Shown here: in pieces, positions 14,643 to 53,205 of the stretch | Position numbering within the stretch: position 1 is the stretch's first letter | How the letters are laid out: each line of letters starts with the position of its first letter | IMG/VR virus record: IMGVR_UViG_3300032770_000017 | Location: 1 to 64,000 of that record | Direction: 5' to 3' (one strand) | Length of the DNA: 64,000 nt | Source of the DNA: a virus | Made by a program: the position numbers and the translations under genes | The notes under the pieces: model-generated | The model's database searches: none | The model's input: only the letters and a program-made list of their open reading frames with translations | Told to the model about the DNA's origin: nothing

Positions 14643-17186
14643 GTGACCCCTCGCCCAGGAGGCCAGATGCGACCGTCCCGCTGGCAGCGCCCGATCTTCG
14701 GGCCGTTCCGGAGGCAGGCCCACACGGGCGTGCCAGCCGATCACTTCCGACCCGCTGCGGAGATGACCGCCTATGGCGATGGGGTCAACGTCCTCGTCGC
14801 CCACGGTGAGCATTCCCTCGCCTCACTGGTGGCAGCGGCCTCAGGCGGCACCGACTGGCCGATTGCGGATCGCGATACCGCTTGGGATGGCGCAGCGGCA
14901 GCAAAGGATTGTCAGAAGTGGGCTTCTTCCGATGGCTCCGGTGACAAGGACAAGATCGATTTCACGAAGCTGGGCCGGTGCTTTTTCTGGAAAGACGACT
15001 CCGACGGCGACCCCTCCAATCTTGGAGATTTCAAGCTCGGCTTCGTCGCCAACGATGGCGGGACGATGAAGGCCATCCCCAAGGGCATCTTCGCCGTGGG
15101 CGGCGTCCTTTCCGGGGCGCGCGGCGGTGCCGACCTCGGGGGCGACGAGACGGCGGTCAAGGCCAAGGTGGCAGCGTGGTACCGCAAGCTGGCGGCCAAA
15201 TTCGATGACCCGTCGATCAAGGCCCCGTGGCTGCCCGACAAGGAGTCGAGCGCCAAGAGCAGGATCCTCGCCGCAGTGGACGTGCTGCCAGGCTTCCAGG
15301 CCTCCGAGGCGGCCACCAGCCTGATCGTCGCCATCGACGCGGCGGTGGACGAGCTGATGGAGGAACTGGGCATCGGGGACGACGACGGCGAGGACCAGAT
15401 GTCCGCGGCGGCCGCCGTGGCGCTGCGCCGGGCCCAGTTGGCGTTGGCCAAGGCCGAGATGGGCCCCGACCCCCTCGCGTCGGTGCACCCGCCCTTCACC
15501 GGCCGCCACAGCCATCCCCACTCGGCGTTCGGCCAGCAGGGCGGCGACGCCACCCACAGCCACAGCCACTCCCACAACGGCGACGCCACCCACGTCCACG
15601 CCCACGGGGCCATGGCGGAACTGCCGGAACGGTCAGGGCCGTCGCTGCACAACCTGAGCATCGAGGAGCGCCGACGGGTTGACGGGTCCAATGAGATCAC
15701 CGACCCTGCGGAGTTGGCCGCTCTCGTGGCGAGCGCCTTTGAGGCACGCGGCGGTATCGAGGCATGGTCGGCCCTACGTGCCTCTCTGGGACTCACCGCG
15801 GCGACCGGGGCGGACGGCAAGGTAGTCCCTGCCGCTTGGCACGGCTATGACGCGGTCGAGGGCATTCGCACTGACGATGGCCGAGAACTGTGTGCGGAGG
15901 CGTGCCTGTTCCCTGACCTGCCTGTGAGCATCCGGCTTCTCCTCGAAGATCAGGGCGGCCACTGGGGTGCGGTCACAGCGGGCCGCGTGGACACGATGGA
16001 ACGGGTGCCGCTCGGTCCTATCAGTGCGATCTACTCCGAGGGCATGTTCGGGTCAGACCCGAATGGGCAGCTCGCCGAGTTGATGGTGGCGGAACAGACG
16101 CAGCGGTTCCTTTCTATTGACCCTCGGCCTGACTTCGTCGGCGAGGTGGTATCGGTCACGATCTCAACCGGCGATGGCGATGGGTATTTCGGGGAACTGG
16201 ACGATGTGGCGGTCGACACCTGGCTGCGGATCCAGTCCTGCACCATCGGGGCCGTGACCATCGTCCCCATCCCGGCCTATCCCCAGTGCGTCATCACGCT
16301 TGCCGATCAGGCGCTCCCAGAGGCTCCCATTGCCATTGCGTCGGCACCTCCCGGCTTGCCGGCGGTGACTGCCGCTGGAGGCCCTGTAAGACCCTCTCGC
16401 AAGGCTTTCGACAACCCCGGGTTCTATGTGGGCGATCCTCGTCTGGTGCGCCAGAAGTCTGGCGACTACGCGTGCCCAGCCACGGTCAGCGAGGACGGCT
16501 CGCGCTGTTGGGGCCATCTTGCTGCCTGGAAGACGGCGCATACGGCCGGCGTGCGTGACGAGTACGGCCAACCACGCAAGCCCCCTCGCTCCAAGACCAA
16601 CTACGCCTACTTCCTCACAGGCGTTGTCGTCTGCGAGGACGGTAGCGAGGTCCCCGTGGGCAATCTGACCATGGGGACCGGACACGCCAGTGTGTACGCG
16701 CCGCTCCCCGACGTGCTCGCCCACTATGACGGCGGTTACGGTGCTGTATGCGTTGCGGACGTGACGGTGGGTGAGGACGATTTCGGCATTTGGTTCGCAG
16801 GGGCCATGCGTTCGGAGCTGACCGATGAGCAACTCAGGGAGTTCAGAGCGACGAACCTGTCGGGGGACTGGCGCAACCTTGGCGGCAACCTCGAACTGGT
16901 GGCCGTGCTTGCTGGCGTCCCTTCCCCCGGGTTCCCGATCGCGCGCCGAGCGGTGACGGCCGCTGGGACTCCCGTTTTCGCAGATGGCGAGGCGATGATC
17001 GCGGCCATGAACGGCGATCGCTGCCTCGCTCTTGTGGCGGCAGGGGTGGTGCAGAGGATCGATCCGTTGGAGCGACTGGCGGCTTTGGAGCGGGCCCATG
17101 AAATTCTATGGGCCGATTACCAGTCTCTCGCGGCTCGGGTACGCCCCATCGAACTGGAGCGATTGCGGGCTCAGTCGGGTCTGTGA
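14643..17186 (+). CDS. Capsid maturation protease/scaffold-associated multidomain protein
   Basis: N-terminal WDGAAA..FKL..GARGG domain; C-terminal GEDDFGIWFAGA..LSGDWR..LELVAVL..PGFPIAR, as in cluster-B-type maturation proteins. Confidence 0.75.
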   Translation: MTPRPGGQMRPSRWQRPIFGPFRRQAHTGVPADHFRPAAEMTAYGDGVNVLVAHGEHSLASLVAAASGGTDWPIADRDTAWDGAAAAKDCQKWASSDGSGDKDKIDFTKLGRCFFWKDDSDGDPSNLGDFKLGFVANDGGTMKAIPKGIFAVGGVLSGARGGADLGGDETAVKAKVAAWYRKLAAKFDDPSIKAPWLPDKESSAKSRILAAVDVLPGFQASEAATSLIVAIDAAVDELMEELGIGDDDGEDQMSAAAAVALRRAQLALAKAEMGPDPLASVHPPFTGRHSHPHSAFGQQGGDATHSHSHSHNGDATHVHAHGAMAELPERSGPSLHNLSIEERRRVDGSNEITDPAELAALVASAFEARGGIEAWSALRASLGLTAATGADGKVVPAAWHGYDAVEGIRTDDGRELCAEACLFPDLPVSIRLLLEDQGGHWGAVTAGRVDTMERVPLGPISAIYSEGMFGSDPNGQLAELMVAEQTQRFLSIDPRPDFVGEVVSVTISTGDGDGYFGELDDVAVDTWLRIQSCTIGAVTIVPIPAYPQCVITLADQALPEAPIAIASAPPGLPAVTAAGGPVRPSRKAFDNPGFYVGDPRLVRQKSGDYACPATVSEDGSRCWGHLAAWKTAHTAGVRDEYGQPRKPPRSKTNYAYFLTGVVVCEDGSEVPVGNLTMGTGHASVYAPLPDVLAHYDGGYGAVCVADVTVGEDDFGIWFAGAMRSELTDEQLREFRATNLSGDWRNLGGNLELVAVLAGVPSPGFPIARRAVTAAGTPVFADGEAMIAAMNGDRCLALVAAGVVQRIDPLERLAALERAHEILWADYQSLAARVRPIELERLRAQSGL

Positions 17187-17252
17187 TATAAATGGACCGG
17201 GCGGCGCCGCGAACGCCCCCGGTCCTGGCCGATCCTCTGTGGAAGGAACGAC
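17184..17252 (+). promoter_or_regulatory. Promoter plus conserved two-hairpin leader (copy A)
   Basis: TG.TATAAA; GGACCGGG-C-GGCG/CGCC-CCCGGTCC; CGATCCT/AGGAACG over RBS. Confidence 0.7.
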
Positions 17253-17927
17253 ATGGTTCACGGTACCTGCTCTGTGCCAGATTGCACCAGACCCGTTTAC
17301 GTGAGGTCCTGGTGTGTGGCCCATTACCAGCGTTGGCGCAAATACGGTGATCCTGCCTACCCGGTAAGAAGGACGGTGCAAAACCTCGGTTTGCCATGCA
17401 ATGTGGCCGGATGTAGCCGTCCCGCCTTCCTGCGCGGTATGTGCGGACCCCACTACCGCAGGTTCAAGAGCACTGGGACGACCGATCTGAGCCCGAGGCC
17501 TCGACGGTCGAAGGGCCCCTCTATCTGCAAGATCGAAGGATGCGACTCGATCGTTGAAGCCCACGGCTGGTGCCGTGTGCATCACTGGCATTATCAAGCC
17601 CACGGTGATCCGCTAGCAGGCCGTTTCCATGCAAAGGCTGGCGAGGGTTGGATCAACAAGAAGGGTTATCGAATGGTCCGACGGGGCAAAGGTCGGTCGA
17701 GGCCTGAGCATTGTTGGGTCATGGAGGAAATGCTCGGCCGGCCGCTAATGGTCGGTGAAGAAGTCCACCACATCAATGGCCAGAAAGCCGATAACCGCCC
17801 GCAGAACTTGGAGTTGTGGTCAAGATCGCATCCGGCTGGTCAGCGGGTAGAGGATCTGGTCGCGTGGGCTCGGGAGATCCTGGCCCGCTACGGCGACGAC
17901 TTCGTCCAGCCCAGGTTGTTGCTGTAG
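17253..17927 (+). CDS. HNH homing endonuclease with repeated Cys/His zinc motifs
   Basis: C....C...C..HY repeats; EH..VMEE.LGR.L...EEVHHING.KADNRPQNLELW. Confidence 0.9.
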   Translation: MVHGTCSVPDCTRPVYVRSWCVAHYQRWRKYGDPAYPVRRTVQNLGLPCNVAGCSRPAFLRGMCGPHYRRFKSTGTTDLSPRPRRSKGPSICKIEGCDSIVEAHGWCRVHHWHYQAHGDPLAGRFHAKAGEGWINKKGYRMVRRGKGRSRPEHCWVMEEMLGRPLMVGEEVHHINGQKADNRPQNLELWSRSHPAGQRVEDLVAWAREILARYGDDFVQPRLLL

Positions 17928-17955
17928 GCGCCTTCACAGTGGTAAGGATGGCCGC

Positions 17956-18411
17956 GTGAACACCGGCGCAGGCGTCGAAGTGGACGTGATCACCACCTGC
18001 GACCCAGAGGGCTACGGTCACGTCGGGCTCATCCTGTTGGAGGACGACGGCAAGCACCGGTGCTCGATCTGCCATGAGGAGGCCGACCCGGGCGTGGACG
18101 ACGGCAACGTGACCATCGAAACGCGGGTGACGGGTAAGGGCGCGTTGATGCCCACCCTGCGCCCACCGTGCGAGCACACCGGCGTCACGCAGCAGGTGTT
18201 CTACGCCGTCACCCGCAATGACGCGGGCGTGGTCATCGACCGGGCGGCCAAGGTCAAGCTGAGGTGCTCGTCTTGCGGGCGACCGATGCGGTGGGTCATC
18301 CCCTCGGCGCATTTCTCCGAGGTCGACGGCGAGCGGGGCCTGGTCTGTTCGGTGGTGGCGATGACCGATACCGAGGCCGAGGATGGCTGGCAGGCGGTGG
18401 CCGAGGAATGA
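17956..18411 (+). CDS. Hypothetical Cys-rich protein
   Basis: CSIC, CSSC; TAAGGAT just upstream. Confidence 0.55.
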   Translation: MNTGAGVEVDVITTCDPEGYGHVGLILLEDDGKHRCSICHEEADPGVDDGNVTIETRVTGKGALMPTLRPPCEHTGVTQQVFYAVTRNDAGVVIDRAAKVKLRCSSCGRPMRWVIPSAHFSEVDGERGLVCSVVAMTDTEAEDGWQAVAEE

Positions 18412-19010
18412 GCGATAACGACCGCGTCGATGAGGCAGGGAATCCGCCTATCCCTCACGACGCGGACGACCATCGCATCCCCGCCCGCAAGGCCGAATGC
18501 TGCCAGGCGCACGCCGACGAGCTGGGCCGACTCCCAATAGGTTGGTGTGGGCCGGGGTGCCTGAGAAGCAGGCTGCCTGATCCGTCACCGGGCGACAAGC
18601 TGCCGTTACCCTTCGCGGCCATGCCCACTCAACCCGTTGAGCACTGGGCCTCGGAGCCCGAAGCCCACGATTATCCGGCCGCTCTCGACTACCTGACCCT
18701 GATGATGCCTGCCAAGCAGGCCAAGGCCGCGGTCAGGGCGCTGAAGAAGGCGCCGCTCAGCCACCGTAAGGCCAAAGACCTACTCAGGGCGTCCGGCTTG
18801 GCCGCGTTGCCCAAGACGAATGTGCACGTCGCCAAAGACCTCGCCAAGGTGGCGGGAGGGACGAAGTTGTCGCCCGTCCTCATTGTGCGCGACGACACAT
18901 CGGTCGGGTCATTGCTGCTTATTGCCGACGGCTACCATCGCATTTGCGCCAGTTACATAATCGATGAGAACGCCGAAATCCCCTGTCGCCTTATCTCGTC
19001 AAAGGCGTGA
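18408..19010 (+). CDS. ParB/Srx-like domain protein
   Basis: LSPVLIVR..LLIADGYHR motif; start uncertain (18408 or 18621). Confidence 0.65.
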   Translation: MSDNDRVDEAGNPPIPHDADDHRIPARKAECCQAHADELGRLPIGWCGPGCLRSRLPDPSPGDKLPLPFAAMPTQPVEHWASEPEAHDYPAALDYLTLMMPAKQAKAAVRALKKAPLSHRKAKDLLRASGLAALPKTNVHVAKDLAKVAGGTKLSPVLIVRDDTSVGSLLLIADGYHRICASYIIDENAEIPCRLISSKA

Positions 19011-19447
19011 CCTCTAACCGCGATGAAATCGTGTTTGGCGGGCTTGATGGCCTGACCAGTGCCCTCGGCGTGATGGCCGGCGCCTACCTCGCCAACGCCC
19101 GGGCCAAGACGGTGCTGATCACCGGGCTCGGGCTCGCCATCGCCGCGGCGGTGTCCATGGCCGGCGGTGAGGCCCTGAGCGACGAGGAGGCCGATGGGCG
19201 GATCGTGCGGGCGGCATACATGGGCGGCGCTACCTTGGTCGGGTCGTTCCTGCCGATCGCCGGGTTCATCTTCGACCGCCGTGCCGGGCTGGTGTTCTGC
19301 ATCGTGATCACGGTGTGCGTGGGCGCCACTGTTGCCCATCTGCGCCCCGGCGCCTGGTGGCCATCGATCGTCAAGACCTTCGCCGTACTGGCGGTGGCGG
19401 CTGGGCTATCGGTGGTGGCAGCGGTCGCGATGGGGGCCACGGGTTAG
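19007..19447 (+). CDS. VIT1/CCC1-family membrane transporter (minimal)
   Basis: DEIVFGGLDGLTS.LGV.AG and AVSMAGGEALS motifs; about 5 TM. Confidence 0.8.
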   Translation: MTSNRDEIVFGGLDGLTSALGVMAGAYLANARAKTVLITGLGLAIAAAVSMAGGEALSDEEADGRIVRAAYMGGATLVGSFLPIAGFIFDRRAGLVFCIVITVCVGATVAHLRPGAWWPSIVKTFAVLAVAAGLSVVAAVAMGATG

Positions 19448-19516
19448 GCCATCACACCCCCTCTCGTGCGCCCCGCATAGCGTTGCGGCGCCCCCTTCGG
19501 AGCGAGGAGCCCTCCC

Positions 19517-20572: not shown

Positions 20573-20889
20573 CCCCCTTGCGCGCCGTCGCCACCCGGGC
20601 AGTCAGTGAGCCCCGTCACTGGCCGCTGCGCAAGGTGGCGGCGATCGGGCTCCCGTTGCTGCTGCTCGGCGCCCTCGGGATCACGCTCGGCCTCCTGGCC
20701 CACGCCCACCACACCTACCGCACCGTGGTCCAGACGGCCACGGTCGGCGCCCAGCCGGCGACGGTGCACGCGGCCCCCACGGACCCGCAGAACACGATCG
20801 CTCTAGTGACCTGTGTCTGCGGCGTGGTCGCCACCCTGACCGGCGTGGGGACGTTCGTGGTCAGCCTGCGCAAGGCCCCAGCCTCGTGA
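20569..20889 (+). CDS. Two-TM membrane protein
   Basis: GTGA overlaps; hydrophobic segments. Confidence 0.55.
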   Translation: MTPLRAVATRAVSEPRHWPLRKVAAIGLPLLLLGALGITLGLLAHAHHTYRTVVQTATVGAQPATVHAAPTDPQNTIALVTCVCGVVATLTGVGTFVVSLRKAPAS

Positions 20890-21518: not shown

Positions 21519-23783
21519 GTGGACGCACTGCACATCAACCGATTCGCTGCGTTCGCCGCCGATGGCTCGATGACCAGCCTGGTGGCCGAGGGGCTGCCCG
21601 AATGGCCCACCGACGGCGCCCTCGGAGCGATCGCCGATGCCGACCTGTACGCGATGGAGCAGGCGTACCTCGCCGAGTTCGCCGCCATCGAAGCCGACCC
21701 GTCCCGCCCGGTGGGCGACGCCGTGGCCCTCGCCGAGCACGTTCGTGCCCTGCGCGACGAGGCCGAGCGCCGTATGGCCGCCGAGCCCGTCCCTGAGCCC
21801 ACGGCCGAGGAACTGGCCGCCCAGGCCGCAGCCGATGAGGCCGCGGCCGCGCTCGCCGCCGAGCGGGAGGCCCAACTGGCCGCCCTGCGCGCCGAGATCA
21901 CCCCCGAGCCCGGTGCGGGCGAGACCATCCCCGAGGGCACGGCGTTCAGCCGCGAAGACCTCGTGGCCGCCGTCACCGCCGGTGCCGAAGCCGCGGCACG
22001 GGCCATCGTGCCCGCCGTCACCGCTGCCATCGCCCAGGCTGCCCCGGTCACCGAGCCGGCCCCTGGCGTCACGATCACCCGCATGCGGGCCCGTGACCTC
22101 GGTGGCTATCGCCCCGACCACCTCGCCCCGGCGCCAGCCAACGGCGCCGAGCGCAGCCGGTTCACAGCCAAGGTCGTCTCAGCCACCGACTCGTCCGCGG
22201 TCGGCCTCGGCGGCGAGATCCAGACCATGGACCAGCTCGTGGACATCTTCACCGAGAAGGCTCTCGCCATCGGGCGGGCATCCGGTGTGGACAACGAGCA
22301 GGTCAAGTTGGCCTCGATCAAGCTCGACCGGGTGCCGCCGGAGATGGACCTGCGCGGTATCACCGACGGCCGGGAACTGCGCCGCAAGGTGCTGTCGGTC
22401 ATCGGCCCCGAGGCCGTTGGCGTCAACCCGTGGACCGGCCGTGAGGCCCCCATCGGGCGCGGCGGTGTCGTGCACGTCGGAGAGGGCCTGGTCGCATCCG
22501 GCGGGTTGGCCGCACCGGTCGAGCCGTACTACAACCAGCTCGTCATCGCCCAGGGCGCACGCCCTGTGCAGGCGGCGTTGCCGACCTTCGTGGCCGAACG
22601 AGGCGGGATCAAGCTCACGCTGCCTCCCTCCATCGGCACGATCGCGGCGGCCACCACGCCCGGGCAGTACACCGACGGTGTGACCAACACCGATACCTCG
22701 CTGGTGTCAGCCACGGCCACCTTCACCGCCGCCGATGCCGGCTCGTACATCTCCGGCTCGCCGACGATCTTCGCCGAGGGCACGATCATCGCCAGCGTCA
22801 CCAACTCGACGACGGTGGTCCTGTCGGCGGCCACGCTCACGACCACCACGGGCGTGACCTTCGTGATCCAGCGGCGCAACCCTTACAACCTCGGGCCTGC
22901 CGTTGGTGTCGTCACCGCCGCCCAGGACGCCGCAGGGCCGCCGAACGTGATCAAGTACACCTACGACGTGCCCGTCGGCACGCAGAACGAGTACGACGTC
23001 TATTCGGTCTACACGTCGCTGCAGTTCGGCAACCTGACCGGGCGCACCTTCCCCGAGCAGGTGGAGGCCAACATCCGCGTCGCCGACGCGCTGGCCGCCC
23101 GGACCGCGGACACGCAGATGCTGAACCTCATCAGCCTCTACTCGACGCTGTTCACCGGGGCCAAGACGTTCGGCACGGCACGCCAACTGCTCGCCCAGTT
23201 GGGCCACATGGGAGCGGTGTACCGCAACTCCGAGCGTATGGACCCGAGCGCCGTGCTGCGGGTGCTGCTGCCGGCGTGGGCGATCAACGCCATGCGGGGC
23301 GACTACATCGCCTCGTTCATCGGTGGCGGCGACGCCTGGGGCCTCTCCGACGACGAGATCGCCGGGTGGCTGGCCGACAACCACTTCATGCTCAGCCTCT
23401 ACCAGGACGGCCCGACGGACATCTCGCAGCTCTTCGTCACCACCGGCTTCTCGGGGGCGACGGGCAACGGGACCACGCTCGGGACGCCGATCGCCATCCC
23501 CGACTACCCGGGCACTGGCGCGACCACCTCGTTCCGCACGCAGGTGATCTCGTTCATGTGGGCCGAGGGGACGTGGCTCGGGCTGACCACCGGGGAACTG
23601 AATTTGGGCCTAGTTCGGGATAGCATACTCAATTCACAGAACCGATACCGTCAATTCTCTGAAGTGTGGGAGACTCCCGCTTTCGTGGGAACTCGCACGC
23701 TGCGGGGAGAGCACACGGTTGCGGCAGACGGCAGCTACGGCGCCGCCGTGTCGGTCACTCTTGGGGCCGGCAACGGGCTCTAG
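21519..23783 (+). CDS. Major capsid protein with N-terminal scaffold-like region and inserted Ser/Thr-rich domain
   Basis: GGAGG RBS before GTG 21519; LVASGG.AP.E.YY, RGGIK, LNLGLVRDS.LN..N.Y..FSE motifs; strong GC3. Confidence 0.85.
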   Translation: MDALHINRFAAFAADGSMTSLVAEGLPEWPTDGALGAIADADLYAMEQAYLAEFAAIEADPSRPVGDAVALAEHVRALRDEAERRMAAEPVPEPTAEELAAQAAADEAAAALAAEREAQLAALRAEITPEPGAGETIPEGTAFSREDLVAAVTAGAEAAARAIVPAVTAAIAQAAPVTEPAPGVTITRMRARDLGGYRPDHLAPAPANGAERSRFTAKVVSATDSSAVGLGGEIQTMDQLVDIFTEKALAIGRASGVDNEQVKLASIKLDRVPPEMDLRGITDGRELRRKVLSVIGPEAVGVNPWTGREAPIGRGGVVHVGEGLVASGGLAAPVEPYYNQLVIAQGARPVQAALPTFVAERGGIKLTLPPSIGTIAAATTPGQYTDGVTNTDTSLVSATATFTAADAGSYISGSPTIFAEGTIIASVTNSTTVVLSAATLTTTTGVTFVIQRRNPYNLGPAVGVVTAAQDAAGPPNVIKYTYDVPVGTQNEYDVYSVYTSLQFGNLTGRTFPEQVEANIRVADALAARTADTQMLNLISLYSTLFTGAKTFGTARQLLAQLGHMGAVYRNSERMDPSAVLRVLLPAWAINAMRGDYIASFIGGGDAWGLSDDEIAGWLADNHFMLSLYQDGPTDISQLFVTTGFSGATGNGTTLGTPIAIPDYPGTGATTSFRTQVISFMWAEGTWLGLTTGELNLGLVRDSILNSQNRYRQFSEVWETPAFVGTRTLRGEHTVAADGSYGAAVSVTLGAGNGL

Positions 23784-24628
23784 GAGTCGTCGCCTTGTCC
23801 CTTTCGCCTCGCTCGGCTCTCTGCGGCCTGCACCCGTCGGTACTCGCGCGCCTCATCGGGCGTCAGGTCACGGCTGCGTTTGCCGAAGAGGCGAAAGGCC
23901 AGCGTTCCTCGGTAGTACTCCTCGGTGGTCTCCCGGCCATCGAGGAGTCGCTGCCGGTCGCGCTGGGCTTGGGACTTGGCTCGGTCGAAGGTTCTTCTTT
24001 CCTCCGGCGTGAGGTCACGAAGCCGCTTGCCGAACATCTGCCAGGCGGGCGTCTCGTGCACCCATCGGGAACTGGAGCCCTGAACGCGCGGGCCATGTTG
24101 GAGGAATGCAGTGAGCAGTTCGTGCGCCCGTTCCTTGCGCCGGGCGCCAAGCCATGCCCAGAAAAGGCAGACGATGTGCTGGAACTCTTCGTGACTGCCG
24201 ACCTGCCAGATCAGGATCGGTTTGCGGCCACCGGGCCGTTCCTTCGGTCCAGTGATGCTGCCGACCTGCACGATGGCAGCGAAGCGCTCGACTACGTCGT
24301 AGTCGGTCATCGCCAGTGTCGCCGTTGGCCCACCGCGGCCAGGGCTCCTAGAGAAACATCCCTCTCCCTCGAAGAGCGCGGCCGCCCAAGCGATTTCGGC
24401 CGCGCTCGGCATCACGAAAGATGCTCGGATCTTTCGCACTGGGACCGGCTCCGGTTTGCGCCCGCGTTGCTTGACCACCAGGGGATCACCCCATCGGTGG
24501 TAGCGACGGGCATGCTTCCCGCAGAGCGGCTCGCCTTCGGCGCCGGTGCCGTTGGCTGCTCGTCCACAGACGACGCCATCCTCAATGACGGCGCAGGCCT
24601 TGCCGAGAACCTCGTTACGCTGACTCAT
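23780..24628 (-). CDS. LAGLIDADG-like homing endonuclease with N-terminal Cys/His motif
   Basis: GGAGG RBS before ATG 24628; EIAWAAALFEGEGCF helix, MTDYDVVERF. Confidence 0.8.
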   Translation of the reverse strand: MSQRNEVLGKACAVIEDGVVCGRAANGTGAEGEPLCGKHARRYHRWGDPLVVKQRGRKPEPVPVRKIRASFVMPSAAEIAWAAALFEGEGCFSRSPGRGGPTATLAMTDYDVVERFAAIVQVGSITGPKERPGGRKPILIWQVGSHEEFQHIVCLFWAWLGARRKERAHELLTAFLQHGPRVQGSSSRWVHETPAWQMFGKRLRDLTPEERRTFDRAKSQAQRDRQRLLDGRETTEEYYRGTLAFRLFGKRSRDLTPDEAREYRRVQAAESRARRKGQGDDS

Positions 24629-24698
24629 GTCGGACCTCCTCACAGGTTCGGCCGGGGCCGGGGGTGCGCAAACACCGCCCGGCCCTCCCATTATAGCA
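24629..24698 (-). promoter_or_regulatory. Promoter plus conserved two-hairpin leader (copy B)
   Basis: TGCTATAAT; GGGCCGGG-C-GGTG/CACC-CCCGGCCC; CGAACCT/AGGTCCG over GGAGG. Confidence 0.75.
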
Positions 24699-24714
24699 AG
24701 TGTAGGAGACGGCC

Positions 24715-26097
24715 ATGAGCGGGCCGACCATGTCGAGCGTCGTTGGGGTCGATTACACCCTGGACCCGGGACCGCCGCTCAAACTGCCGCCCCTCTCGTT
24801 GCTGTCGTTGGCATCGCCGTTGGTGGACATCGACGACCTGATTGGGCAGCAGCAGCAGGCGGCCGAGATGGTCCTGTCGGCACAAAGCGACCTGAGCGCC
24901 CTCGAAGCGCCCATGGATGCCGACGAGTCGATCGACACGCTGGAGCGCCAGCAGGCCACAGAGGCCGCGCAGAACCGCGTCCAGGAGGGCGAGGCGTGGC
25001 TGTCGGCGGTCAACAAGCGCCTGGCCGAGGTGCAGCGCTGGGAGCACGGGTTCCAGTACCTGCCCGAGTTATCCCAGTCGGCTGGCATGTCGATCTTCGC
25101 CCCCGACGGCGACCCGGCCATCACCAACCCCACCGTCGGCGCGATCAAGACGGTCGGGCCCAATCAGACGGCGTTCGCGTGGTACGACCCCTTCCAGGTG
25201 GTCGCCCTTGATTCGCGGTCGCTGTTCGGCTGGCCCAACACCGACTTCGCCTCACGGTCGCGCCGTGCCCTGCGGGCGCTGCAGAACCACGAGTCGTGGG
25301 ACGTGGAGCAGGAGTTCTGGAGCGGGAGCAGCATCCCGACGAACTACCACCTCTCCGCATCGCCCAGCACGCCGACCACATCACCGCACCGCACGGTCAC
25401 GGGTTGGCCCAACCCCACCGCCGCGTCAGGGACCACGCTTGGGACCGCGGTCGGGCTCGGTGCGTCGTTGGCCGCGCTTGACCAGTCAATCGCAGACGCA
25501 GACGCGGGCACCGGTGTCATCCACGCCACGCCGTACCTCGTGCAGCGCTGGGCGTCGGTGTACTCGTACCTGCGGGACTCCGACGGCCACGTCTACACGG
25601 TCAACCACAACCTGATCCTGGCGGGCTACGGCTACCCGGGCACCGGTCCCGACGTGGCCTCGCGCACGGTCACAGACGGTGTGCTGGCGTCGACCACCAC
25701 CGTCACGAGCGCCACCGCCAACTTCACGAACTTCGACATCGGCTCATCCATCTCCGCTGCCGACGGAAAGATCCCGGCTGGCGCCTACATCGTGAGCGTC
25801 ACCAACTCCACAACCGTGATCATCTCGGCCGCGGCCACGGCATCGGAGTCCGGGGTCACGATCACCATCGGCGCGTCGCAGGCCCACATCGGCGGCAACC
25901 GCTACCAGTGGGCCTACGCGACCGACTGGCTCTACACCTGCGCAGGCGCGGCCCAGATCTACCCGTGGGACTTCCGCCAGGGCTCACCCGACGTGCCACT
26001 CGACAACCTCGCCGAGATCCGCGTGGAGCGGAGCTGGGCCGTGCTTACGAACCAGTTGCTCAGAGCCGCCGTCCTCGTCGACACCGGCACGGCATAG
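24715..26097 (+). CDS. Capsid-associated structural protein with inserted Ser/Thr-rich domain
   Basis: Position between MCP and tail tube; PFQV, E..VEQEFW, GVIHA, GYPGTGP motifs. Confidence 0.7.
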   Translation: MSGPTMSSVVGVDYTLDPGPPLKLPPLSLLSLASPLVDIDDLIGQQQQAAEMVLSAQSDLSALEAPMDADESIDTLERQQATEAAQNRVQEGEAWLSAVNKRLAEVQRWEHGFQYLPELSQSAGMSIFAPDGDPAITNPTVGAIKTVGPNQTAFAWYDPFQVVALDSRSLFGWPNTDFASRSRRALRALQNHESWDVEQEFWSGSSIPTNYHLSASPSTPTTSPHRTVTGWPNPTAASGTTLGTAVGLGASLAALDQSIADADAGTGVIHATPYLVQRWASVYSYLRDSDGHVYTVNHNLILAGYGYPGTGPDVASRTVTDGVLASTTTVTSATANFTNFDIGSSISAADGKIPAGAYIVSVTNSTTVIISAAATASESGVTITIGASQAHIGGNRYQWAYATDWLYTCAGAAQIYPWDFRQGSPDVPLDNLAEIRVERSWAVLTNQLLRAAVLVDTGTA

Positions 26098-43005: not shown

Positions 43006-43015
43006 GCTGAACGCG

Positions 43016-46359: not shown

Positions 46360-46652
46360 CGGGCTGGGCGGTCGAGAACTGGCTCCTGGTCGACGGCCGA
46401 TGCGCTCTCGCCGGCTTCGACCCGTTGGCGCTCCCGGCGCGCCGGCTCATCTCAGTGCTGTACTGCATGCTCGTGGACCAGCCGGTATTCACCGAGGAAG
46501 CGGAGAAGCACCGCCAGGACATCATCATTGCCTTGGAATGGCCCGAGGTCGGCGAACAGATGCAGCTCGAAGCCGACGACAAGCAGGCGCGCGCCGCGCT
46601 GGCACAATTCGGCATTTCCCTGCCAGTCGGTATCGAGTTCGTACCGGAATGA
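46335..46652 (+). CDS. Tail assembly chaperone extension (probable -1 frameshift product)
   Basis: -1 frame open through CGCCCTAC: PYAAVQALTGWAVENWLLVDG...; no convincing start of its own. Confidence 0.6.
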   Translation, partial: PYAAVQALTGWAVENWLLVDGRCALAGFDPLALPARRLISVLYCMLVDQPVFTEEAEKHRQDIIIALEWPEVGEQMQLEADDKQARAALAQFGISLPVGIEFVPE

Positions 46653-46661
46653 GCGCCTGAG

Positions 46662-49307
46662 ATGCCTTCGATCATTGGCACGGCCTTTTTGGATGTGCGA
46701 CCCGAGACGACCAACTTCGAGTCCGATCTGAAGAAGAAGATCTCCGGCTTCGGCGGCATCGCCCCCGTCATCGGCACCTTGGCCGCCGCCGGTGTCGCAG
46801 TGGGCGGCGCGCTGTTCGACATCGGCTCCAAGTTCGAGGATGCATTCAACAAGATCAAGGTGGCCACCGGTGCGACCGGCTTGCAACTGGCCGGGCTCGG
46901 CGTGTCATTCAAGGACGTGTTCTCCAAGAGCGCGTCGTCAATGACAGATGTGGCCACCGCTATCTCCGAGGTCTCGGTCCGCACCCATCTGACCGGTACT
47001 GCGCTCGACGACCTGTCCAAGAAGTTCGTCGACCTGAGCCGCATCACAGGCACCTCGGTGGCGACGAACGTGCAGACGGTCACGGCGCTGTTCAACAACT
47101 TCGGGGTGGCGACAAAGAACCAGTCGGCTGAGCTGGACGTGCTGTTCAAGGCCGCCCAGCAGTCAGGGGTGGGCATCGACAACCTCGTCTCCTCGGTGCA
47201 GGCGGCGACGCCCACCGCCCAGACCCTCGGGCTCAACATCAACCAGACGACCGCGCTCGTCGCCCAGTTGACCCAGGCGGGATTACCGGCGACCAAGGTG
47301 ATGATGGGCCTGGGCATGGAGTTCGCCAAGGCGGCCAAGGCCGGGCAGGACCCGACCTCAGTGATCGCCAAACTGGTCGCCGAGATCAAGGCGGCACCGA
47401 ACGCTACCGACGCGGCGACGTTGGCGGTCAGAAACTTCGGCGTGAGCGCGCGCCAGGCGGCCACGCTGGTCGATGCTGTGCGGGCGGGGACCCTGAACTT
47501 CGGCGCCACGCTTGCGTCAATTACGAGCGGTGGCGGGGGGATCGAAGCGGCCACGAATGCCACCTTGACCCTCGGTGACAAGTTCAAGATCCTGCGCAAT
47601 ACCGCGCTCACCGCGTTGGAGCCGATCGCCATGAAGGTGGTCGACTTCGCCAACTTGCTTGCCGACAGGATCCCGGGCGCCATCCGTACGACTGTCGATG
47701 TGATCAAGGGTGCTATCGGCGGCCTTGTCGGCGGCTTCAGCGGCCAGGCACTCGCCGCCTCTGGGTTCGTGCGGGTATTCGGTGAGATCGGCCGCACGGC
47801 CCGCGACATCTTCGACTTCATCCGTGCCCACAAGGCCGAGGTGCTCGGCGCGCTCGCCGGTATCGGTGCGATTGTCCTCAGCGCAGTGATCCCGGCCTTT
47901 GTCGGTTGGGCTGCCGCCGCGGGTGCCGCTGCTGCCGCGACCATTGCCGCCGCTGCGCCCTTCATCGCCGCGAGTGCCGCTGCCGCCGCTGTGGGCTACG
48001 GCCTCGTCTACGCCTACACACACTTCGTGATCTTCCGCGACATCGTGAAGGACGTTGCCAAGGTCATCGTGGACGTGGCGGTGTTCGCGTTCCGTCAGGT
48101 GCGGTTGGAGATCGAGACGGTCGTCGCCGTGTTCACCGACCTGATCAAGTTCTTCTCTGATGTCTTCCAAGGCAAGTGGTCGGCAGCGTTCAAGGCGCTA
48201 GAGGACATTCCCAAGCGACTCTTCGAGTACGTGCGGGATACGGTGGGCAACATCGTCAAGCTGTTCGAGAGCCTTCCCGCTCAGGTGCTTGGCGGGATCG
48301 AATCTCTCGGCGGCGCGATCGGCCGGTTCTTTGAGGGGTTACCTGCGGATGCGGTGACTGGGCTCAAGACGCTCGGCAGCGCCCTGTTGACCGCGTTCAA
48401 GAACGGCATCGTGGCACTCGTCACCGGGCTACCGGGCCTGCTCATTGACGTAGCCGTGTTCTTCGAGGTGAAGCTACCGCTGCTCATCCTCGAATGGACC
48501 GCCAATGCTGCTGTGTGGCTTGCCGGTGTCGGGGTGAAGTTGATCGTCGGGTTCGTCTCCGATCTCATCTCGGCGCTGCCCACCGTGGCCAAGTTCTTCC
48601 TGGACCTGCCGGGCGAGATCCTCACCTTCATCGGCAATGCCGCGCTGTGGCTCGTGCACGTCGGCATGGACATCCTCACCGGTCTGTGCAACGGGCTTAT
48701 CGCCACCGTGCCCGCGCTGTTCCGGTTCTTCACCGGCCTACCGAGCAAGATCCTCGACCTGCTCAAGGACGCGGGGACATGGCTCGTCAAGGTGGGCCAG
48801 GCCATCATCGACGGGCTGATCAAGGGCATCGGCAACGAGGCCGGGAAACTGGAGTCGAAAGTCAAAGATTCGATCCTCGGGCCGATCAAGAAGATCCCGA
48901 TCGTCGGTGGCCTGATCGGTTCACCGTCGCCCTACTTCACGACCGTCGGCGAGGCCATCGTGCAGGGCCTGGCGCTCGGCATCGCCAACAAGGCGAACCT
49001 GCCGCAACAGGCGTTGGCCGGCGTGAAGATCGGCGGTCCCACTGTCGCGCCGGTCGGCCTCGGGACGCCATCGGCGATCGCAGCGGCAGGCCCGACGGCC
49101 GCGACCACCGCGACGACAACGGCGCTGGCGACGCAGACCAAGGCCACGATGACAACCAATGACATTCTCAAGGAGATCCTCGCTTTCATCCGAGAGCAGG
49201 CGTTGACCGCCAACGCTGCCGTGACCCAGAACACGCAGGCACTGAAGGCTTCGACGACGGAGTCGATCCTGGCCCTGCGCGCCGAGCAGGTCCAGAGAGG
49301 CCGCTGA
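46662..49307 (+). CDS. Tape measure protein
   Basis: IGTAFLDVRP start, long Ala/Gly helical repeats, I.SPS motif. Confidence 0.9.
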   Translation: MPSIIGTAFLDVRPETTNFESDLKKKISGFGGIAPVIGTLAAAGVAVGGALFDIGSKFEDAFNKIKVATGATGLQLAGLGVSFKDVFSKSASSMTDVATAISEVSVRTHLTGTALDDLSKKFVDLSRITGTSVATNVQTVTALFNNFGVATKNQSAELDVLFKAAQQSGVGIDNLVSSVQAATPTAQTLGLNINQTTALVAQLTQAGLPATKVMMGLGMEFAKAAKAGQDPTSVIAKLVAEIKAAPNATDAATLAVRNFGVSARQAATLVDAVRAGTLNFGATLASITSGGGGIEAATNATLTLGDKFKILRNTALTALEPIAMKVVDFANLLADRIPGAIRTTVDVIKGAIGGLVGGFSGQALAASGFVRVFGEIGRTARDIFDFIRAHKAEVLGALAGIGAIVLSAVIPAFVGWAAAAGAAAAATIAAAAPFIAASAAAAAVGYGLVYAYTHFVIFRDIVKDVAKVIVDVAVFAFRQVRLEIETVVAVFTDLIKFFSDVFQGKWSAAFKALEDIPKRLFEYVRDTVGNIVKLFESLPAQVLGGIESLGGAIGRFFEGLPADAVTGLKTLGSALLTAFKNGIVALVTGLPGLLIDVAVFFEVKLPLLILEWTANAAVWLAGVGVKLIVGFVSDLISALPTVAKFFLDLPGEILTFIGNAALWLVHVGMDILTGLCNGLIATVPALFRFFTGLPSKILDLLKDAGTWLVKVGQAIIDGLIKGIGNEAGKLESKVKDSILGPIKKIPIVGGLIGSPSPYFTTVGEAIVQGLALGIANKANLPQQALAGVKIGGPTVAPVGLGTPSAIAAAGPTAATTATTTALATQTKATMTTNDILKEILAFIREQALTANAAVTQNTQALKASTTESILALRAEQVQRGR

Positions 49308-49308
49308 C

Positions 49309-49833
49309 ATGGCTGGCCCCACCGGTGCGACCGGCACGACCGGATCGGTCACGCCTTCGAGCGGCCGCCTGTGCCCGGACCTGTCGATGGGCACGCTCAC
49401 CATCTCGGGCGTGGAACTGGTCAACACCTATGCCTGGTCGATCACCGACCTGCGGCCCCTGTGGGACTCGGCCGATGTACGTGGCACCGACCGCATCCTG
49501 CCCGGCGTCATTGGCGTGATCCCCTATCAGCGCCGCTGGACGGTGACGAAGATTAACCTGCCCATGGTCATCTCGGGCTACGTCGACCAAGCCGGGTCGA
49601 TCTATGACAACCCCTTCGTCGGGCTGCAGGTCAACCAGGCGTACCTGCTCGACAACGTCGTCGCCCCCGTCGGTTCCAACCCTGGCACGCGCCCGGCCGT
49701 GCTCACCATGCCTGACACCACCACGCGCTCGGGCGACGTGACGGTGGAGACGCTCAAGTTCGGGCCGATGGCCGGCGCCATCTCCTGGCCCTGCGTGCTC
49801 GTGATCAGCATCCCTGGAGGGATGCTGACGTGA
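49309..49833 (+). CDS. Distal tail (Dit-like) minor tail protein
   Basis: Immediately after TMP; RG.DRILPG..G. Confidence 0.6.
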   Translation: MAGPTGATGTTGSVTPSSGRLCPDLSMGTLTISGVELVNTYAWSITDLRPLWDSADVRGTDRILPGVIGVIPYQRRWTVTKINLPMVISGYVDQAGSIYDNPFVGLQVNQAYLLDNVVAPVGSNPGTRPAVLTMPDTTTRSGDVTVETLKFGPMAGAISWPCVLVISIPGGMLT

Positions 49834-49845
49834 GGCGCGGAAGGG

Positions 49846-50263
49846 GTGACCCGCGATCAACCAAGTAACACCCTTCTGCAGGCAGGAGTTCCTCGCCGCC
49901 GCGGCCAACTGGCAGTCCGACACATTCCGCATCGTGGCGGTGTCCTCGGGCTACTCGTTCTCCACGAGCGACCACTACCTGTCGGCCATCTCCGGTGGGG
50001 ACATCATCGCCACCTCGGCCGCGCTCACCAGCACCGACCCCACCGACGGCAACGCTTCGGCCGATCCGGTGGTGTTCTCCTCGGTCGGCGCGGGCTCGAC
50101 CATCGCCGGGTTGTGGCTCTACCGCGACACGGGATCGAGCAGCACGTCGCAACTGCTGGTGTGGTGGGACCAGGACGCCACCAACTTCCCGTTGGCCATC
50201 GTCACCAATGGTGGAGATATCACGTTGACGTTCCCAAGTGGGGGGACCTTATTTATACTATGA
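49846..50263 (+). CDS. Virion protein, paralog of 36983 family, with apparent +1 frameshift after codon 2
   Basis: Frame 49853-50263 reads AINQVTPFCRQEFLAAAANWQSDTFRIVAV...NGGDIT; RBS and GTG at 49846 are one base out of frame. Confidence 0.65.
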
Positions 50264-50292
50264 CGTCGCCCTCGTTTGCTATGATGTTGTCC

Positions 50293-50955
50293 ATGCGAAC
50301 CAAATCTCCGCTCGTTTACGAGGATGAGCATGGGCAGTGGTGGTACAAGACGGCGACCGGTGCTCGGCAGCGCGCTGTGATACGGAATTGCTCCACCTGT
50401 GGTGAGCAATTCGTGTGCAGGTCAACAAAGGCGAGCCCCTTCTGTTCGGAGGCATGCTGGCGACGTACATGCCTGACCTGCAACACGGTGTTCACCCCAT
50501 CAACGACACGGCAGCAATATTGCAGCTACAAGTGCCGGCGCGGGACGCGCACCTGTATCGAGTGCGGACGTGTGTTTATTACCGTGGCAAACAGCCATGG
50601 GAAATATTGCTCGCAGGAGTGCCACTACAACCACAAGGTGCCGGTTGGGTCCGTCCGGTTACTCAAGCGAACCGGTTACACCATAATCAAGCTCCCCTTT
50701 GGCCGCTATGGCGGGGCAGGTGGCAAATATCGTCGTGAGCATTGGATGCTAGAGCATCGATACGTGATGGAGCAGATAATTGGGCGACCACTTCTCCCGT
50801 CCGAGCATGTTCACCACAAGAACGGCGATCGCGCGGATAACCGTCCAGAGAATCTAGAGCTCTGGAAGAACAAGAGCGGTAAGGGCGGGCATCCCTACGG
50901 CGTTCGTCTTGACGATTATCACTGTCCCGGTTGCCGATGCGGGGAAGATCGATGA
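50293..50955 (+). CDS. HNH endonuclease with tandem CxxC...CS..C zinc ribbons
   Basis: EHRYVMEQ.IGRPL...EHVHHKNGDRADNRPENLELW; TGCTATGAT 7 nt before ATG 50293 (alternative start 50260). Confidence 0.9.
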   Translation: MRTKSPLVYEDEHGQWWYKTATGARQRAVIRNCSTCGEQFVCRSTKASPFCSEACWRRTCLTCNTVFTPSTTRQQYCSYKCRRGTRTCIECGRVFITVANSHGKYCSQECHYNHKVPVGSVRLLKRTGYTIIKLPFGRYGGAGGKYRREHWMLEHRYVMEQIIGRPLLPSEHVHHKNGDRADNRPENLELWKNKSGKGGHPYGVRLDDYHCPGCRCGEDR

Positions 50956-50992
50956 CGTTCCCGAGCGGCGGGACCTTGTTCGTTCTTTAGCG

Positions 50993-51292
50993 ATGCCGTC
51001 CTCCACCGTCGCCGCAGCGCCCGCTCAGAGCCTCACAGAGGCCCCCATCTCGTCGTCGAGCTACACGGTCAACACCGTCTACCCGCCCGCCTCTGGCGCC
51101 CTTGCAGCGGCCCCTATCGCCCTCGCCGCACTGGACACCGTCACCGGCGCGCCGGCTGTGGCTCTAGCCGCGGCCGGAGTGCCACCGAGCCCCAACTCCA
51201 CCACAGCGGCCGTAGCTGCCGGTGCGCTCAGCGCCACGCCTGGGCCGACTGTCGTGACGCCGACCTCCTACGTGATCGGGACGGCGACATGA
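50993..51292 (+). CDS. Ala/Pro-rich small virion protein
   Basis: ORF coupled to next gene; start uncertain. Confidence 0.45.
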   Translation: MPSSTVAAAPAQSLTEAPISSSSYTVNTVYPPASGALAAAPIALAALDTVTGAPAVALAAAGVPPSPNSTTAAVAAGALSATPGPTVVTPTSYVIGTAT

Positions 51293-52575
51293 CCGGCGCG
51301 GTGGCCTTCGGGCCCACGATCACCCAAAGCGGCATCACCCCGCCGCCTGTCTACACACCGGCGATCACCTGCGGGGTCTACGACCGCTCGGGGACGTTGC
51401 TCAAGGCGCTCCCCAACTCCTACAACCGCCACTGGCAGGACCAGCTCAATGTGGAGGGCACCGGCTCGGCGGTGGTGCAGATATTCGACCCGACCACGGA
51501 ATTGATCGTGTCGTGCGACATCCCATGGCGCTCTATCCTGATCTTCTCGATCGACACCATCCCTCGCTACGCCTCGATCATCGAGCACATGGTGGAGAAG
51601 CTCGTCGCCCAGGGCGAAGAGGTGGACGAGACGCTGGAACTGTCCGGGCGCGGGACGTTGGCGCTGTTCGAGGAGGCGGTCTGCTACCCGGAGAACGGCC
51701 TCAGCCGCCAACCCTTCACCGACACCCGCCTGTTCTCCTACGCGTCGATCGACTTCGATGACTCCATGTGGGCCTCGGCCGTGCAAGTCAAGCTCCAATC
51801 GGACCCGACCTCGGGCCTGCCGTGGGACGGGGCGCCACAGGACTGGCCGGACCACAACGCCTATTGGATCTGGGACCGCGCGGTCACTTCCGCCACGCCC
51901 TGGCCGACGGGCAATGTGTACTTCCGAAAGCAGATCACCATTCCCTCCGGTGGCGATGTGGTGCGGTTCTTCATCACCGCCGACGATGGTTTCGAGTTGT
52001 ACGTGGACGGCGGCCTGCTCCAGAGCGACACCGAGGCGTACCTGTGGGGGGTGACCAGACAGGTCGATCTCTTCCTCGACAGTGGGACTCATCTCGTCGC
52101 GATCAAGGGCACGAACCTGTCGCGGGCCTCGTCGAGCACGAACTATGCCGGCATCATCTGCTCGATGTACGTCGCCAATGGCGACGGCTCGCTGGGCGGC
52201 CTCATCGCCCACACCGACTCGTCATGGAAGATGCTTGCCTATCCGCCCAATCCGCCTGGCTACACCGTGGGGCAGATCCTGCGCATCCTCACCGAAGAGG
52301 CCCAGGCGCGGGGGACGCTATCAGGGATCAGTCTTTCGTTCAATGACACCAACGACTCCAACGGCGTTCCCTGGGCGACGCTGGCCGAGGTGCCGATACA
52401 GGTGGGCGACGACATGCTGACCACGATCAAGCAATTGGCTTCGGCCTATTGCGACGTGGCCATGGGCATCGGCACGCCCGTCCTGTTCGCCTACAACACG
52501 CGCGGCAGTTCGGTGAGCACCACCTTCTCCCGCGGCGTGAACCTGGGCGACTGGACGCAGGATGGCGCGGTCTAA
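51289..52575 (+). CDS. Minor tail protein with inserted sugar-binding-like jelly-roll
   Basis: LN..G.GS; AYWIW..YFRK...ITADDGFELYVDG insertion. Confidence 0.75.
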   Translation: MTGAVAFGPTITQSGITPPPVYTPAITCGVYDRSGTLLKALPNSYNRHWQDQLNVEGTGSAVVQIFDPTTELIVSCDIPWRSILIFSIDTIPRYASIIEHMVEKLVAQGEEVDETLELSGRGTLALFEEAVCYPENGLSRQPFTDTRLFSYASIDFDDSMWASAVQVKLQSDPTSGLPWDGAPQDWPDHNAYWIWDRAVTSATPWPTGNVYFRKQITIPSGGDVVRFFITADDGFELYVDGGLLQSDTEAYLWGVTRQVDLFLDSGTHLVAIKGTNLSRASSSTNYAGIICSMYVANGDGSLGGLIAHTDSSWKMLAYPPNPPGYTVGQILRILTEEAQARGTLSGISLSFNDTNDSNGVPWATLAEVPIQVGDDMLTTIKQLASAYCDVAMGIGTPVLFAYNTRGSSVSTTFSRGVNLGDWTQDGAV

Positions 52576-52587
52576 ATGGCCCAGAAC

Positions 52588-52662
52588 GGTATGCTTGAAC
52601 GACGTTGTCCCCGCGCTGCTGGCGCAGCCGGGGACGTGCCCGAACCTTGCTGGAGGTCCGAG
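52588..52662 (+). promoter_or_regulatory. Promoter plus conserved two-hairpin leader (copy C)
   Basis: GGTATGCT; GTCCCCG-C-GCTG/CAGC-CGGGGAC; CGAACCT/AGGTCCG over GGAGG. Confidence 0.75.
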
Positions 52663-53205
52663 ATGGTCAAGCGTATATGCCTCAAGCCCGATTGTGGTCG
52701 TCCGGTGCTCGCGCGGGGTCTTTGCGGTCGTCACTATCAGCAGTACCGCAATAGTCCCGAATGGCAGCCGATGGAGCCTTTGACTGTAGAGCAACGGTTT
52801 TGGATGAAGGTCACCACGCAGGGCAGTATCCCGCCGTTCCGTCCAGACCTAGGACCATGTTACGAATGGACAGGAGGCAAAGGACATGGCGGTTATGCAC
52901 TGTTCCATCCTGTCGCGGGCGTATCCGCTCCTGCTTACCGATGGATTTATGAGCAGGAGAACGGAGCAGTCCCCAAGGGACTTGAGTTGGATCATCTGTG
53001 CCGAAACCCTGGTTGTGTGCGTCCATCGCACTTAGAGGCCGTCACTCACCTGGAGAACGTTCGGCGTGGGGTTGATGCCTACGAACTGAAGGACACCTGT
53101 CGACGTGGTCATTCCATGATTGGAGTGACTCCGTCGAGCGATGGCTACCGCCATTGTCTTGCCTGTCGCCGATTGACGTGGCGTGCGAGGAGGGGAAGGA
53201 CATAG
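52663..53205 (+). CDS. HNH homing endonuclease
   Basis: RFW.KV, C.EWTG, LDHLCRNPGCVRPSHLEAVT..ENVRRG, C.RGH; GGAGG before ATG 52663. Confidence 0.9.
   Translation: MVKRICLKPDCGRPVLARGLCGRHYQQYRNSPEWQPMEPLTVEQRFWMKVTTQGSIPPFRPDLGPCYEWTGGKGHGGYALFHPVAGVSAPAYRWIYEQENGAVPKGLELDHLCRNPGCVRPSHLEAVTHLENVRRGVDAYELKDTCRRGHSMIGVTPSSDGYRHCLACRRLTWRARRGRT

Follow-up and report, generated by a model that had tools for sequence, protein, structure and literature searches.

Which strand carries the function of a two-hairpin element that ends at the start codon of three separate nuclease-type genes in one virus? The element lies in the first 64 kb (hereafter the window) of the 80,207-bp IMG/VR virus record IMGVR_UViG_3300032770_000017 (67% G+C), where its copies occupy 17184-17255(+), 24701-24626(-) and 52590-52665(+), each running up to the ATG of a nuclease gene. 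Control of homing endonuclease genes is known almost entirely from T4, in the form of sense hairpins, nested late promoters and autorepression. The original prediction took the three copies for a portable RNA leader on the coding strand that travels with an N-terminal zinc domain and is possibly bound by it. We found the element to be indeed a portable, conserved and structured module that heads unrelated nuclease genes. However, we moved the reading to the opposite strand because the mismatches are one-sided, a U-rich tail follows the first hairpin on that strand and a promoter signature lies 3′ of the ATG. On this model we think it probable that the element specifies a cis-antisense RNA, similar in kind to SymR and RNA-OUT, which is predicted to cover the Shine-Dalgarno sequence and the AUG.

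In general layout, a GC-rich hairpin, P1 (7-8 bp, one bulged C, a further 4-5 bp and a 4-7-nt loop), is followed by a 2-3-nt linker and then by P2, which reads CCGAWCCU, a 6-7-nt loop and AGGWMCGAS immediately 5′ of the ATG. P1 of copy 1 (17194-17225) is made of GGACCGGG, the bulged C, GGCG, a 7-nt loop, CGCC and CCCGGTCC; that of copy 2 (24685-24655, minus strand) of GGGCCGGG, C, GGUGU, UUGC, GCACC and CCCGGCCC; and that of copy 3 (52607-52635) of GUCCCCG, C, GCUGC, UGGC, GCAGC and CGGGGAC. P2 had been described as CGAWCCU...AGGWNCG, ending 2 nt before the ATG with one mismatch and an A-U/U-A swap, and these features, the P1 pairings and the places of the three copies were all seen again. Taken in a 9-bp register, P2 abuts the ATG and contains two A.C-type mismatches on the sense strand. 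Its arms in this register are 17228-17236 and 17244-17252 in copy 1 (loop 17237-17243), 24652-24644 and 24637-24629 on the minus strand in copy 2 (loop 24643-24638), and 52639-52647 and 52654-52662 in copy 3 (loop 52648-52653). The ATGs that follow are at 17253, 24628 (minus strand) and 52663, the third of which differs from the start of the longest ORF (open reading frame) at 52576. No further copy exists in the 80,207-bp genome, where the next best model match scores 17.7 bits against 53-73 bits for the three copies, with covariance models built on the sense strand (R1) and on the antisense strand (R2) alike.

These models and sequence scans of metagenomes and genomes recovered a large family. 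The set assembled here comprises 66 distinct members, found on IMG/VR contigs, in bacterial genomes that represent five phyla and in cultured phages of Gordonia and Microcystis. A scan of IMG/VR with the P2 pattern gave 40 loci, about 28 of them with a P1 hairpin of differing sequence at the same place. A second scan fixed one common P1 stem (CCCCGGC...CCGGGG) and GACATG, with P2 left free; it added about 30 members, in which the P2 arms vary yet stay complementary (CGCCU/AGGCG, CGACGCU/AGCGCCG, CACUGCU/AGCAAGUG, CGUUC/GAACG). Members score approximately 50-77 bits with R1 and two divergent copies 39-40, compared with less than 33 bits for chance pattern matches. The compensatory changes proposed from three copies are borne out in the family as a whole, both helices covarying strongly: 11 of the 12 P1 pairs show them (0/500 shuffles), and in the R2 alignment (67 distinct sequences, 21 pairs) 96.8% of cells are paired and 17/21 pairs are compensatory (0/500 shuffles; slid controls 30-49%). 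Moreover, an extra copy in contig L027 has a paired 2-nt deletion, one in each arm. The sense P1 loops are mostly of the form C-G-N-N-A-A; window copy 2 and contigs L008 and L003 have the reverse-complement type (UUUGCG, AUUGCA), with the bulge on the unchanged side. No complementarity that would allow a pseudoknot or kissing contact of the P1 loop with the ribosome binding site (RBS) was visible by eye in the family loops.

The family appears to be uncatalogued. No Rfam 15 family matched the window at its gathering threshold, and the matches obtained in E-value mode are at chance level (E 0.74 to 9.2): FinP at 16.1 bits (gathering 45) and PtaRNA1 at 12.9 (gathering 47) on the antisense strand, SymR at 11.8 (gathering 61) and Scr6106 at 19.9 (gathering 52.5) on the sense strand. 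Neither Rfam nor the literature searched yielded an account of this high-GC family, its embedded -10 box or its breadth; Weinberg et al. 2017 make no mention of endonuclease-associated motifs of such a kind, and in PMC10690425 homing endonucleases appear solely in a reference. A 50-bp motif of Gordonia phage Vardy was considered as the same element and rejected, as the Vardy motif serves leaderless genes as their promoter. Integron attC sites and IS200/IS605-type hairpins, suggested by the bulged base and by loops ending in ..AAC, were also rejected, since neither a corresponding core site nor a corresponding enzyme is present and a start codon invariably follows the element directly.

Members occur in phages and prophages of Actinomycetota, Myxococcota, Planctomycetota, Acidobacteriota, Pseudomonadota and Cyanobacteria. 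Copies in bacterial sequences come from Chondromyces apiculatus, Kitasatospora cinereorecta and metagenome-assembled genomes of Polyangia/Myxococcota, Actinomycetota, Planctomycetaceae, Rhizobium and Acidobacteriota. Among cultured phages, the element stands directly 5′ of an annotated HNH gene in Microcystis phage MinS1 and in the Gordonia phages Horus, Asapag, Getalong, BENtherdunthat, Budski, Leroy, LitninMcQueen, Spooky, Squiddly and Malisha. Two contigs carry two copies each before different nuclease genes (L027 at 665-747 and 1851-1941; L131 at 631-721 and 4968-5055) and the window has three; several copies per phage seem to be common.

We scanned 60 downstream ORFs with Pfam (three from the window, 20 and 29 from the two IMG/VR sets and eight from bacterial genomes), and in 39 of them a nuclease domain exceeds the Pfam cut-off. 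The domains found belong to six families: HNH, HNH_3, Endonuclease_7, GIY-YIG, LAGLIDADG_3 and T5orf172. By set, these domains are present in 17/20 ORFs of the first IMG/VR set (HNH_3 with or without NUMOD4 or AP2, HNH, GIY-YIG, Endonuclease_7, LAGLIDADG_3) and 20/29 of the second (HNH, HNH_3, Endonuclease_7, T5orf172/MUG113), one borderline member of which precedes an integrase. Only a weak HNH_3 match was found among the eight ORFs from bacterial genomes (1/8), the others being small ORFs without a Pfam family. Thus, judged from these sequences, the element is tied strongly, but not exclusively, to free-standing homing-endonuclease genes of at least six families. In bacterial contigs L042, L044, L047, L049, L051, L054 and L055 it precedes ORFs of 71-284 amino acids without a Pfam nuclease domain. 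Some of the ORFs behind bacterial-genome copies resemble helix-turn-helix remnants, and L044, L047 and L051 have lost the antisense TANNNT box described below.

In the window, the genes headed by copies 1 and 3 (17253-17927 and 52663-53205, both plus strand) encode HNH_3 endonucleases (PF13392, E 3.8e-9 and 4.7e-15), as had been proposed. The gene behind copy 2 (23780-24628, minus strand) had been called LAGLIDADG-like; its match to LAGLIDADG_3 is weak and below the Pfam cut-off (E 0.0099). For the gene behind copy 3 the true start is the ATG at 52663, not that of the longest ORF. The translations of all three begin with a C..C..C..H motif, as noted originally. However, the proposal that the element travels with this zinc domain fails, because a zinc-motif gene of the same genome lacks the element and most endonucleases that are headed by it lack an N-terminal zinc motif. 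The gene in question encodes an HNH_3 protein (63147-63776, GTG start at 63147) with the same N-terminal Cys/His...WRKYGDP motif as the genes of copies 1-3; its leader instead contains a long GC-rich inverted repeat at approximately 63040-63125. Conversely, members precede NUMOD4-HNH_3, GIY-YIG, Endonuclease_7, LAGLIDADG_3 and T5orf172 proteins without the motif. That a domain common to the downstream proteins autoregulates the element is therefore unlikely. Two further nuclease genes of the genome also stand without the element: an HNH_3 gene at 50293-50955 (PF13392, E 1.7e-11), which has only TTTGCTATGAT ahead of it and no antisense TANNNT in codons 3-5, and an HNH gene near 70.5 kb.

The pairing pattern of P2 differs between the strands. 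In the 9-bp register the cells that are not Watson-Crick comprise 120-122 A.C/C.A against 4-5 G.U, a bias that holds with the register optimised for either strand. As every A.C becomes a G.U on the complementary strand, P2 on the opposite strand (P2′) is an unbroken helix, with 95.5% of P2 cells paired on the antisense strand compared with 75.8% on the sense strand. In copy 2, for example, the plus strand forms an uninterrupted 9-bp helix of GUCGGACCU and AGGUUCGGC (24629-24652). The P1 loop is closed by a sense C..A in 45/66 members, which is a U.G closing a tetraloop on the antisense strand. For the window copies, antisense folds have z-scores of -4.6, -4.0 and -4.6 (0/200 shuffles) with a minimum free energy (MFE) structure frequency of 0.38-0.68, whereas the sense folds have z-scores of -2.4, -1.8 and -2.6 and a frequency of 0.07-0.13.

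The second line of evidence lies within the nuclease genes themselves. The only positions conserved 3′ of the ATG are +8 A (94%), +12 T (86%) and +13 A (86%), which on the opposite strand spell a -10 consensus, TANNNT, in codons 3-5. This box is present in 60/65 members, across all nuclease families, and is followed by the ATG complement after 4 nt in 55 members and after 3 nt in 5. Among 3279 control ORFs from the loci concerned, 72 show the same signature, members themselves included, and its background is about 0.4-2%. The signal is free of ascertainment bias because the region was in no search pattern and lies outside R1. Of the five members without the box, four precede ORFs without a nuclease domain and the fifth (L045) precedes only a 14-codon ORF. 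The window copies have TACCGT at 17260-17265 (minus strand; sense ACGGTA), TACGCT at 24616-24621 (plus strand) and TACGCT at 52670-52675 (minus strand; sense AGCGTA). A transcript begun 6-8 nt past the box would have its first nucleotide in the start-codon complement or at the opening base of P2′. From sequence, the box would also explain the recurrent N-termini M-x-(K/E/Q/D)-x-T and the odd third-position T of codon 4 in high-GC genes.

At the other end, the A-rich tract before sense P1 becomes, on the opposite strand, a U-rich tail after the GC-rich stem of P1′; the 9 nt after the hairpin contain a mean of 4.1 U after P1′ compared with 1.1 after sense P1. In copy 1 this tract (17184-17193) reads TGATATAAAT on the sense strand, where it holds the TGA stop of the upstream portal/protease-type gene, and AUUUAUAUCA on the minus strand. 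It adjoins P1′ (17194-17225, minus strand), a stem of 8 bp, one bulged base and 4-6 bp that covaries in the family and is predicted to be the antisense terminator. Sequence and fold place the corresponding P1′ hairpins at 24655-24685 (plus strand) and 52607-52635 (minus strand), and the P2′ hairpins of copies 1 and 3, at 17228-17252 and 52639-52662, lie on the minus strand, that of copy 1 covering the Shine-Dalgarno sequence. With ends placed by the promoter box and the tail, the predicted RNAs span 17186-17254 (minus strand, approximately 69 nt; 73.3 bits with R2, -37.4 kcal/mol, z -4.63), 24627-24700 (plus strand; 63.1 bits, -39.6 kcal/mol, z -3.98) and 52598-52664 (minus strand; 62.5 bits, -37.3 kcal/mol, z -4.63), none of 200 shuffles folding as well in any case. 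The U tail of copy 2 (UCCCAUUAUAG) is weak and that of copy 3 is poor.

From the structure and its covariation, the strand asymmetry, the fixed box, the tail and the association with nucleases we infer the production of an antisense RNA, the positions of its two ends and its repression of the nuclease. Each copy would then form a compact cassette for sense/antisense control, placed at the 5′ margin of a free-standing homing-endonuclease gene. Initiation by host RNA polymerase would take place at a -10-only promoter (TANNNT) on the opposite strand in codons 3-5, so that the transcript begins at or beside the start-codon complement, takes in P2′ (a 9-bp hairpin with two G.U pairs), 2-4 nt and P1′ (a GC-rich bulged terminator hairpin), and ends in the U-rich tail to give an RNA of approximately 65-70 nt. 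Such an RNA would be complementary along its entire length to the nuclease mRNA, from close to the mRNA 5′ end, across the Shine-Dalgarno sequence and up to the AUG. Duplex formation, probably seeded where complementary loops meet, would keep ribosomes from binding and perhaps lead to cleavage of the duplex. Nuclease output may thus be kept low and tied to gene dosage, as in SymR/symE, IS10 RNA-OUT/RNA-IN and P22 sar/ant. In members with a sense -10 box, the sense transcript would begin approximately where the antisense RNA ends and the two would be almost co-extensive, whereas members that lack one (MinS1, Horus, window copy 1) would be transcribed by read-through from the gene ahead of them. 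Since the requirements would be no more than a -10 box, hairpins and a Shine-Dalgarno sequence, the cassette could work in many phyla, which fits its distribution.

Several observations weigh against an antisense RNA. Whole-element MFE averages -37.6 kcal/mol on the antisense strand compared with -30.4 on the sense strand, and is lower in 65/66 members, but G+C-rich DNA with A-rich flanks folds better on its complement anyway and the gap alone is weak evidence. The signal at +8, +12 and +13 could in principle reflect a constraint on the mRNA or on the N-terminal peptide. The antisense promoter is a motif only, with no clear -35; a strict E. coli-type sigma-70 two-hexamer scan of copies 1 and 2 found no promoter on either strand, nor did a terminator scan of both strands of these copies (at least 5 T in 8) find a terminator. 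The antisense U tails are imperfect, and the predicted terminator of copy 2 lies on the coding strand of the late operon, where it would be costly if efficient. Moreover, a sense TANNNT or extended -10 box precedes P1 by 8-17 nt in about 40/66 members (~60%), and the linker YRUG can pair with CAUG through G.U pairs that are possible on the sense strand only. Both raise the possibility that the sense leader may be structured and functional too. A -10-like box had been claimed for every window copy: copy 2 does have one (TGCTATAAT), an extended -10 (TGC-TATAAT, 24690-24698, minus strand) 4 nt before P1 with a second TANNNT (TACACT) 12 nt before it, as does copy 3 (TATGCT, 52590-52595, plus strand, 11 nt before P1), but copy 1 has TATAAA, which is not TANNNT. 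In copies 1 and 2 part of the apparent sense box is itself the antisense U tail (AUUUAUAU, UCCCAUUAUAG).

These boxes would place P1 at the 5′ end of the mRNA and so lend weight to a purely sense-strand, cis-acting leader, in which P1 is a 5′ stabiliser or insulator, P2, perhaps extended by the linker-AUG pairing, occludes the Shine-Dalgarno sequence and start codon, and no separate RNA is made. We hold this to be unlikely. P2 does contain the Shine-Dalgarno sequence and abut the AUG in all members, and RBS-sequestering hairpins are an established control of T4-family homing endonuclease genes (PMC2988022). However, the very helix meant to occlude the RBS is weakened by two conserved A.C mismatches in nine positions (120 A.C against 4 G.U), and the sense folds are ill-defined (MFE frequency 0.07-0.13, z -1.8 to -2.6), so that occlusion by P2, as originally proposed, probably does not act as the principal mechanism. 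Both arms lie downstream of the sense promoter, with no promoter-like box between them, hence no T4-like escape transcript would arise, and the fixed antisense TANNNT in codons 3-5 and the A-rich tract before P1 are left unexplained. Very unlikely, in our view, is that no regulatory RNA is involved and the element is an insulator or terminator against opposite-strand or read-through transcription, or forms single-stranded DNA hairpins in homing, recombination or replication. An antisense hairpin with a U-rich tail is terminator-like, the G.T asymmetry would equally favour hairpins in the matching DNA strand, and the element marks the 5′ boundary of a mobile cassette, as similarity between related contigs starts approximately 15 nt upstream of the model start. 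A terminator, though, needs neither P2′ with its strong covariation nor a fixed -10 box approximately 70 nt upstream, the six nuclease families have no recombinase or HUH-type enzyme in common, and the constant ending exactly at the start codon would go unexplained. The boundary itself is defined only by where contig similarity starts: a search of IMG/VR for relatives of the tail gene adjoining copy 3, meant for a comparison with empty sites, found none, and comparison of Gordonia phage Spooky with its relatives gave no clean nuclease-less site.

Cis-antisense control of harmful mobile-element genes is already known as a kind. IS10 RNA-OUT is a small antisense RNA with a stem-loop and terminator that covers the ribosome site of the element's own gene. 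P22 sar and lambda OOP are likewise small cis-antisense RNAs (PMC12197685). Like these RNAs (~68-77 nt, stem-loop and terminator), the predicted cassette RNA would cover the ribosome site of its own gene; however, the families and hosts are unrelated, and none of the three is known as a portable cassette of many unrelated genes. In E. coli, the 77-nt RNA SymR (Rfam RF01809) is transcribed against the 5′ end of symE from a promoter within that ORF and represses translation in a type I toxin-antitoxin-like locus (Kawano, Aravind and Storz 2007, PMC1891008). The predicted RNA has a matching layout and a similar size, its promoter also being embedded in the target ORF. It is not a member of the SymR family, given that the RF01809 match (see above) is far below gathering and on the sense strand; moreover, SymR has been observed whereas the cassette RNA is predicted, and the cassette targets are phage homing endonucleases of six families. 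The T-even genes I-TevI, I-TevII, I-TevIII and segB and Aeh1 mobE have RBS-sequestering hairpins with a nested late or middle promoter (PMC2988022). The task, limiting nuclease translation, would be the same, and in both cases a helix directly 5′ of the nuclease ORF includes the Shine-Dalgarno sequence. The T-even hairpin, however, is stable on the sense strand and its inner promoter yields escape transcripts (PMC2988022), whereas in the cassette the A.C mismatches weaken the sense helix, both hairpins lie downstream of the sense promoter and the signals favour the opposite strand. An antisense RNA linked to a homing endonuclease gene, F-CphI, has been observed in cyanophage S-PM2 (CfrI; Millard et al. 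2010, as described in PMC12197685). By that description CfrI is approximately 225 nt and links psbA to the endonuclease gene, unlike a 70-nt two-hairpin unit at a start codon.

The P2 sequence near the Shine-Dalgarno sequence and AUG is conserved far beyond structural need. A bolder extension, which we consider improbable, is that the cassette is a pan-phylum, self-contained sense/antisense "governor" gained by unrelated homing endonucleases through recombination, whose promoter in codons 3-5 forces the shared M-x-x-x-T N-terminus on six nuclease families, and that, in view of this over-conservation, the RNA from any one copy might reach further copies in trans, including those of a co-infecting phage, and silence rival nucleases as an RNA-based immunity against homing attack. 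If the antisense RNA is real, a conserved antisense-RNA cassette would be a second, general way to restrain homing endonucleases, and phage genomes would gain a large RNA family that is not yet catalogued. The cassette would also explain the M-x-x-x-T start of many actinophage "HNH endonuclease" proteins and provide annotation with a rule to pick the true start codon. For synthetic biology in high-GC bacteria, it may offer a small, host-independent module for repression (-10 box, two hairpins, terminator). The model is directly testable in cultured Gordonia phages.

The surroundings of the three copies differ. By PHROGs annotation, copy 1 follows a portal/protease-type gene, copy 2 follows the major head gene on the opposite strand, its nuclease-like gene being convergent with that gene, and copy 3 follows a tail gene. 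No cultured phage was matched by megablast of 16000-19000 or by blastn of copy 2. Copy 2 is oriented against the late operon (24627-24714), with its predicted antisense terminator on the operon coding strand between the major head gene and the gene at 24715; the weak U tail there may let late transcription through. In gene 31 of Gordonia phage Spooky (L186:1984-2065), the annotated HNH start (ATG 1984) precedes the cassette, and the frame opened by it runs across both hairpins, whereas the cassette predicts GTG 2063 as the real start; such mis-set starts may be common in actinophage annotations. Lastly, a motif, GTTAGGATTG, occurs at 63018-63030 of the window and at 66.24 kb and 70.71 kb of the genome, from a few to approximately 120 nt before gene starts. 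It contains TAGGAT as a likely -10, which at 70.69 kb is preceded by TTGACC at 17 nt, and it probably marks early promoters with very short leaders in this phage.

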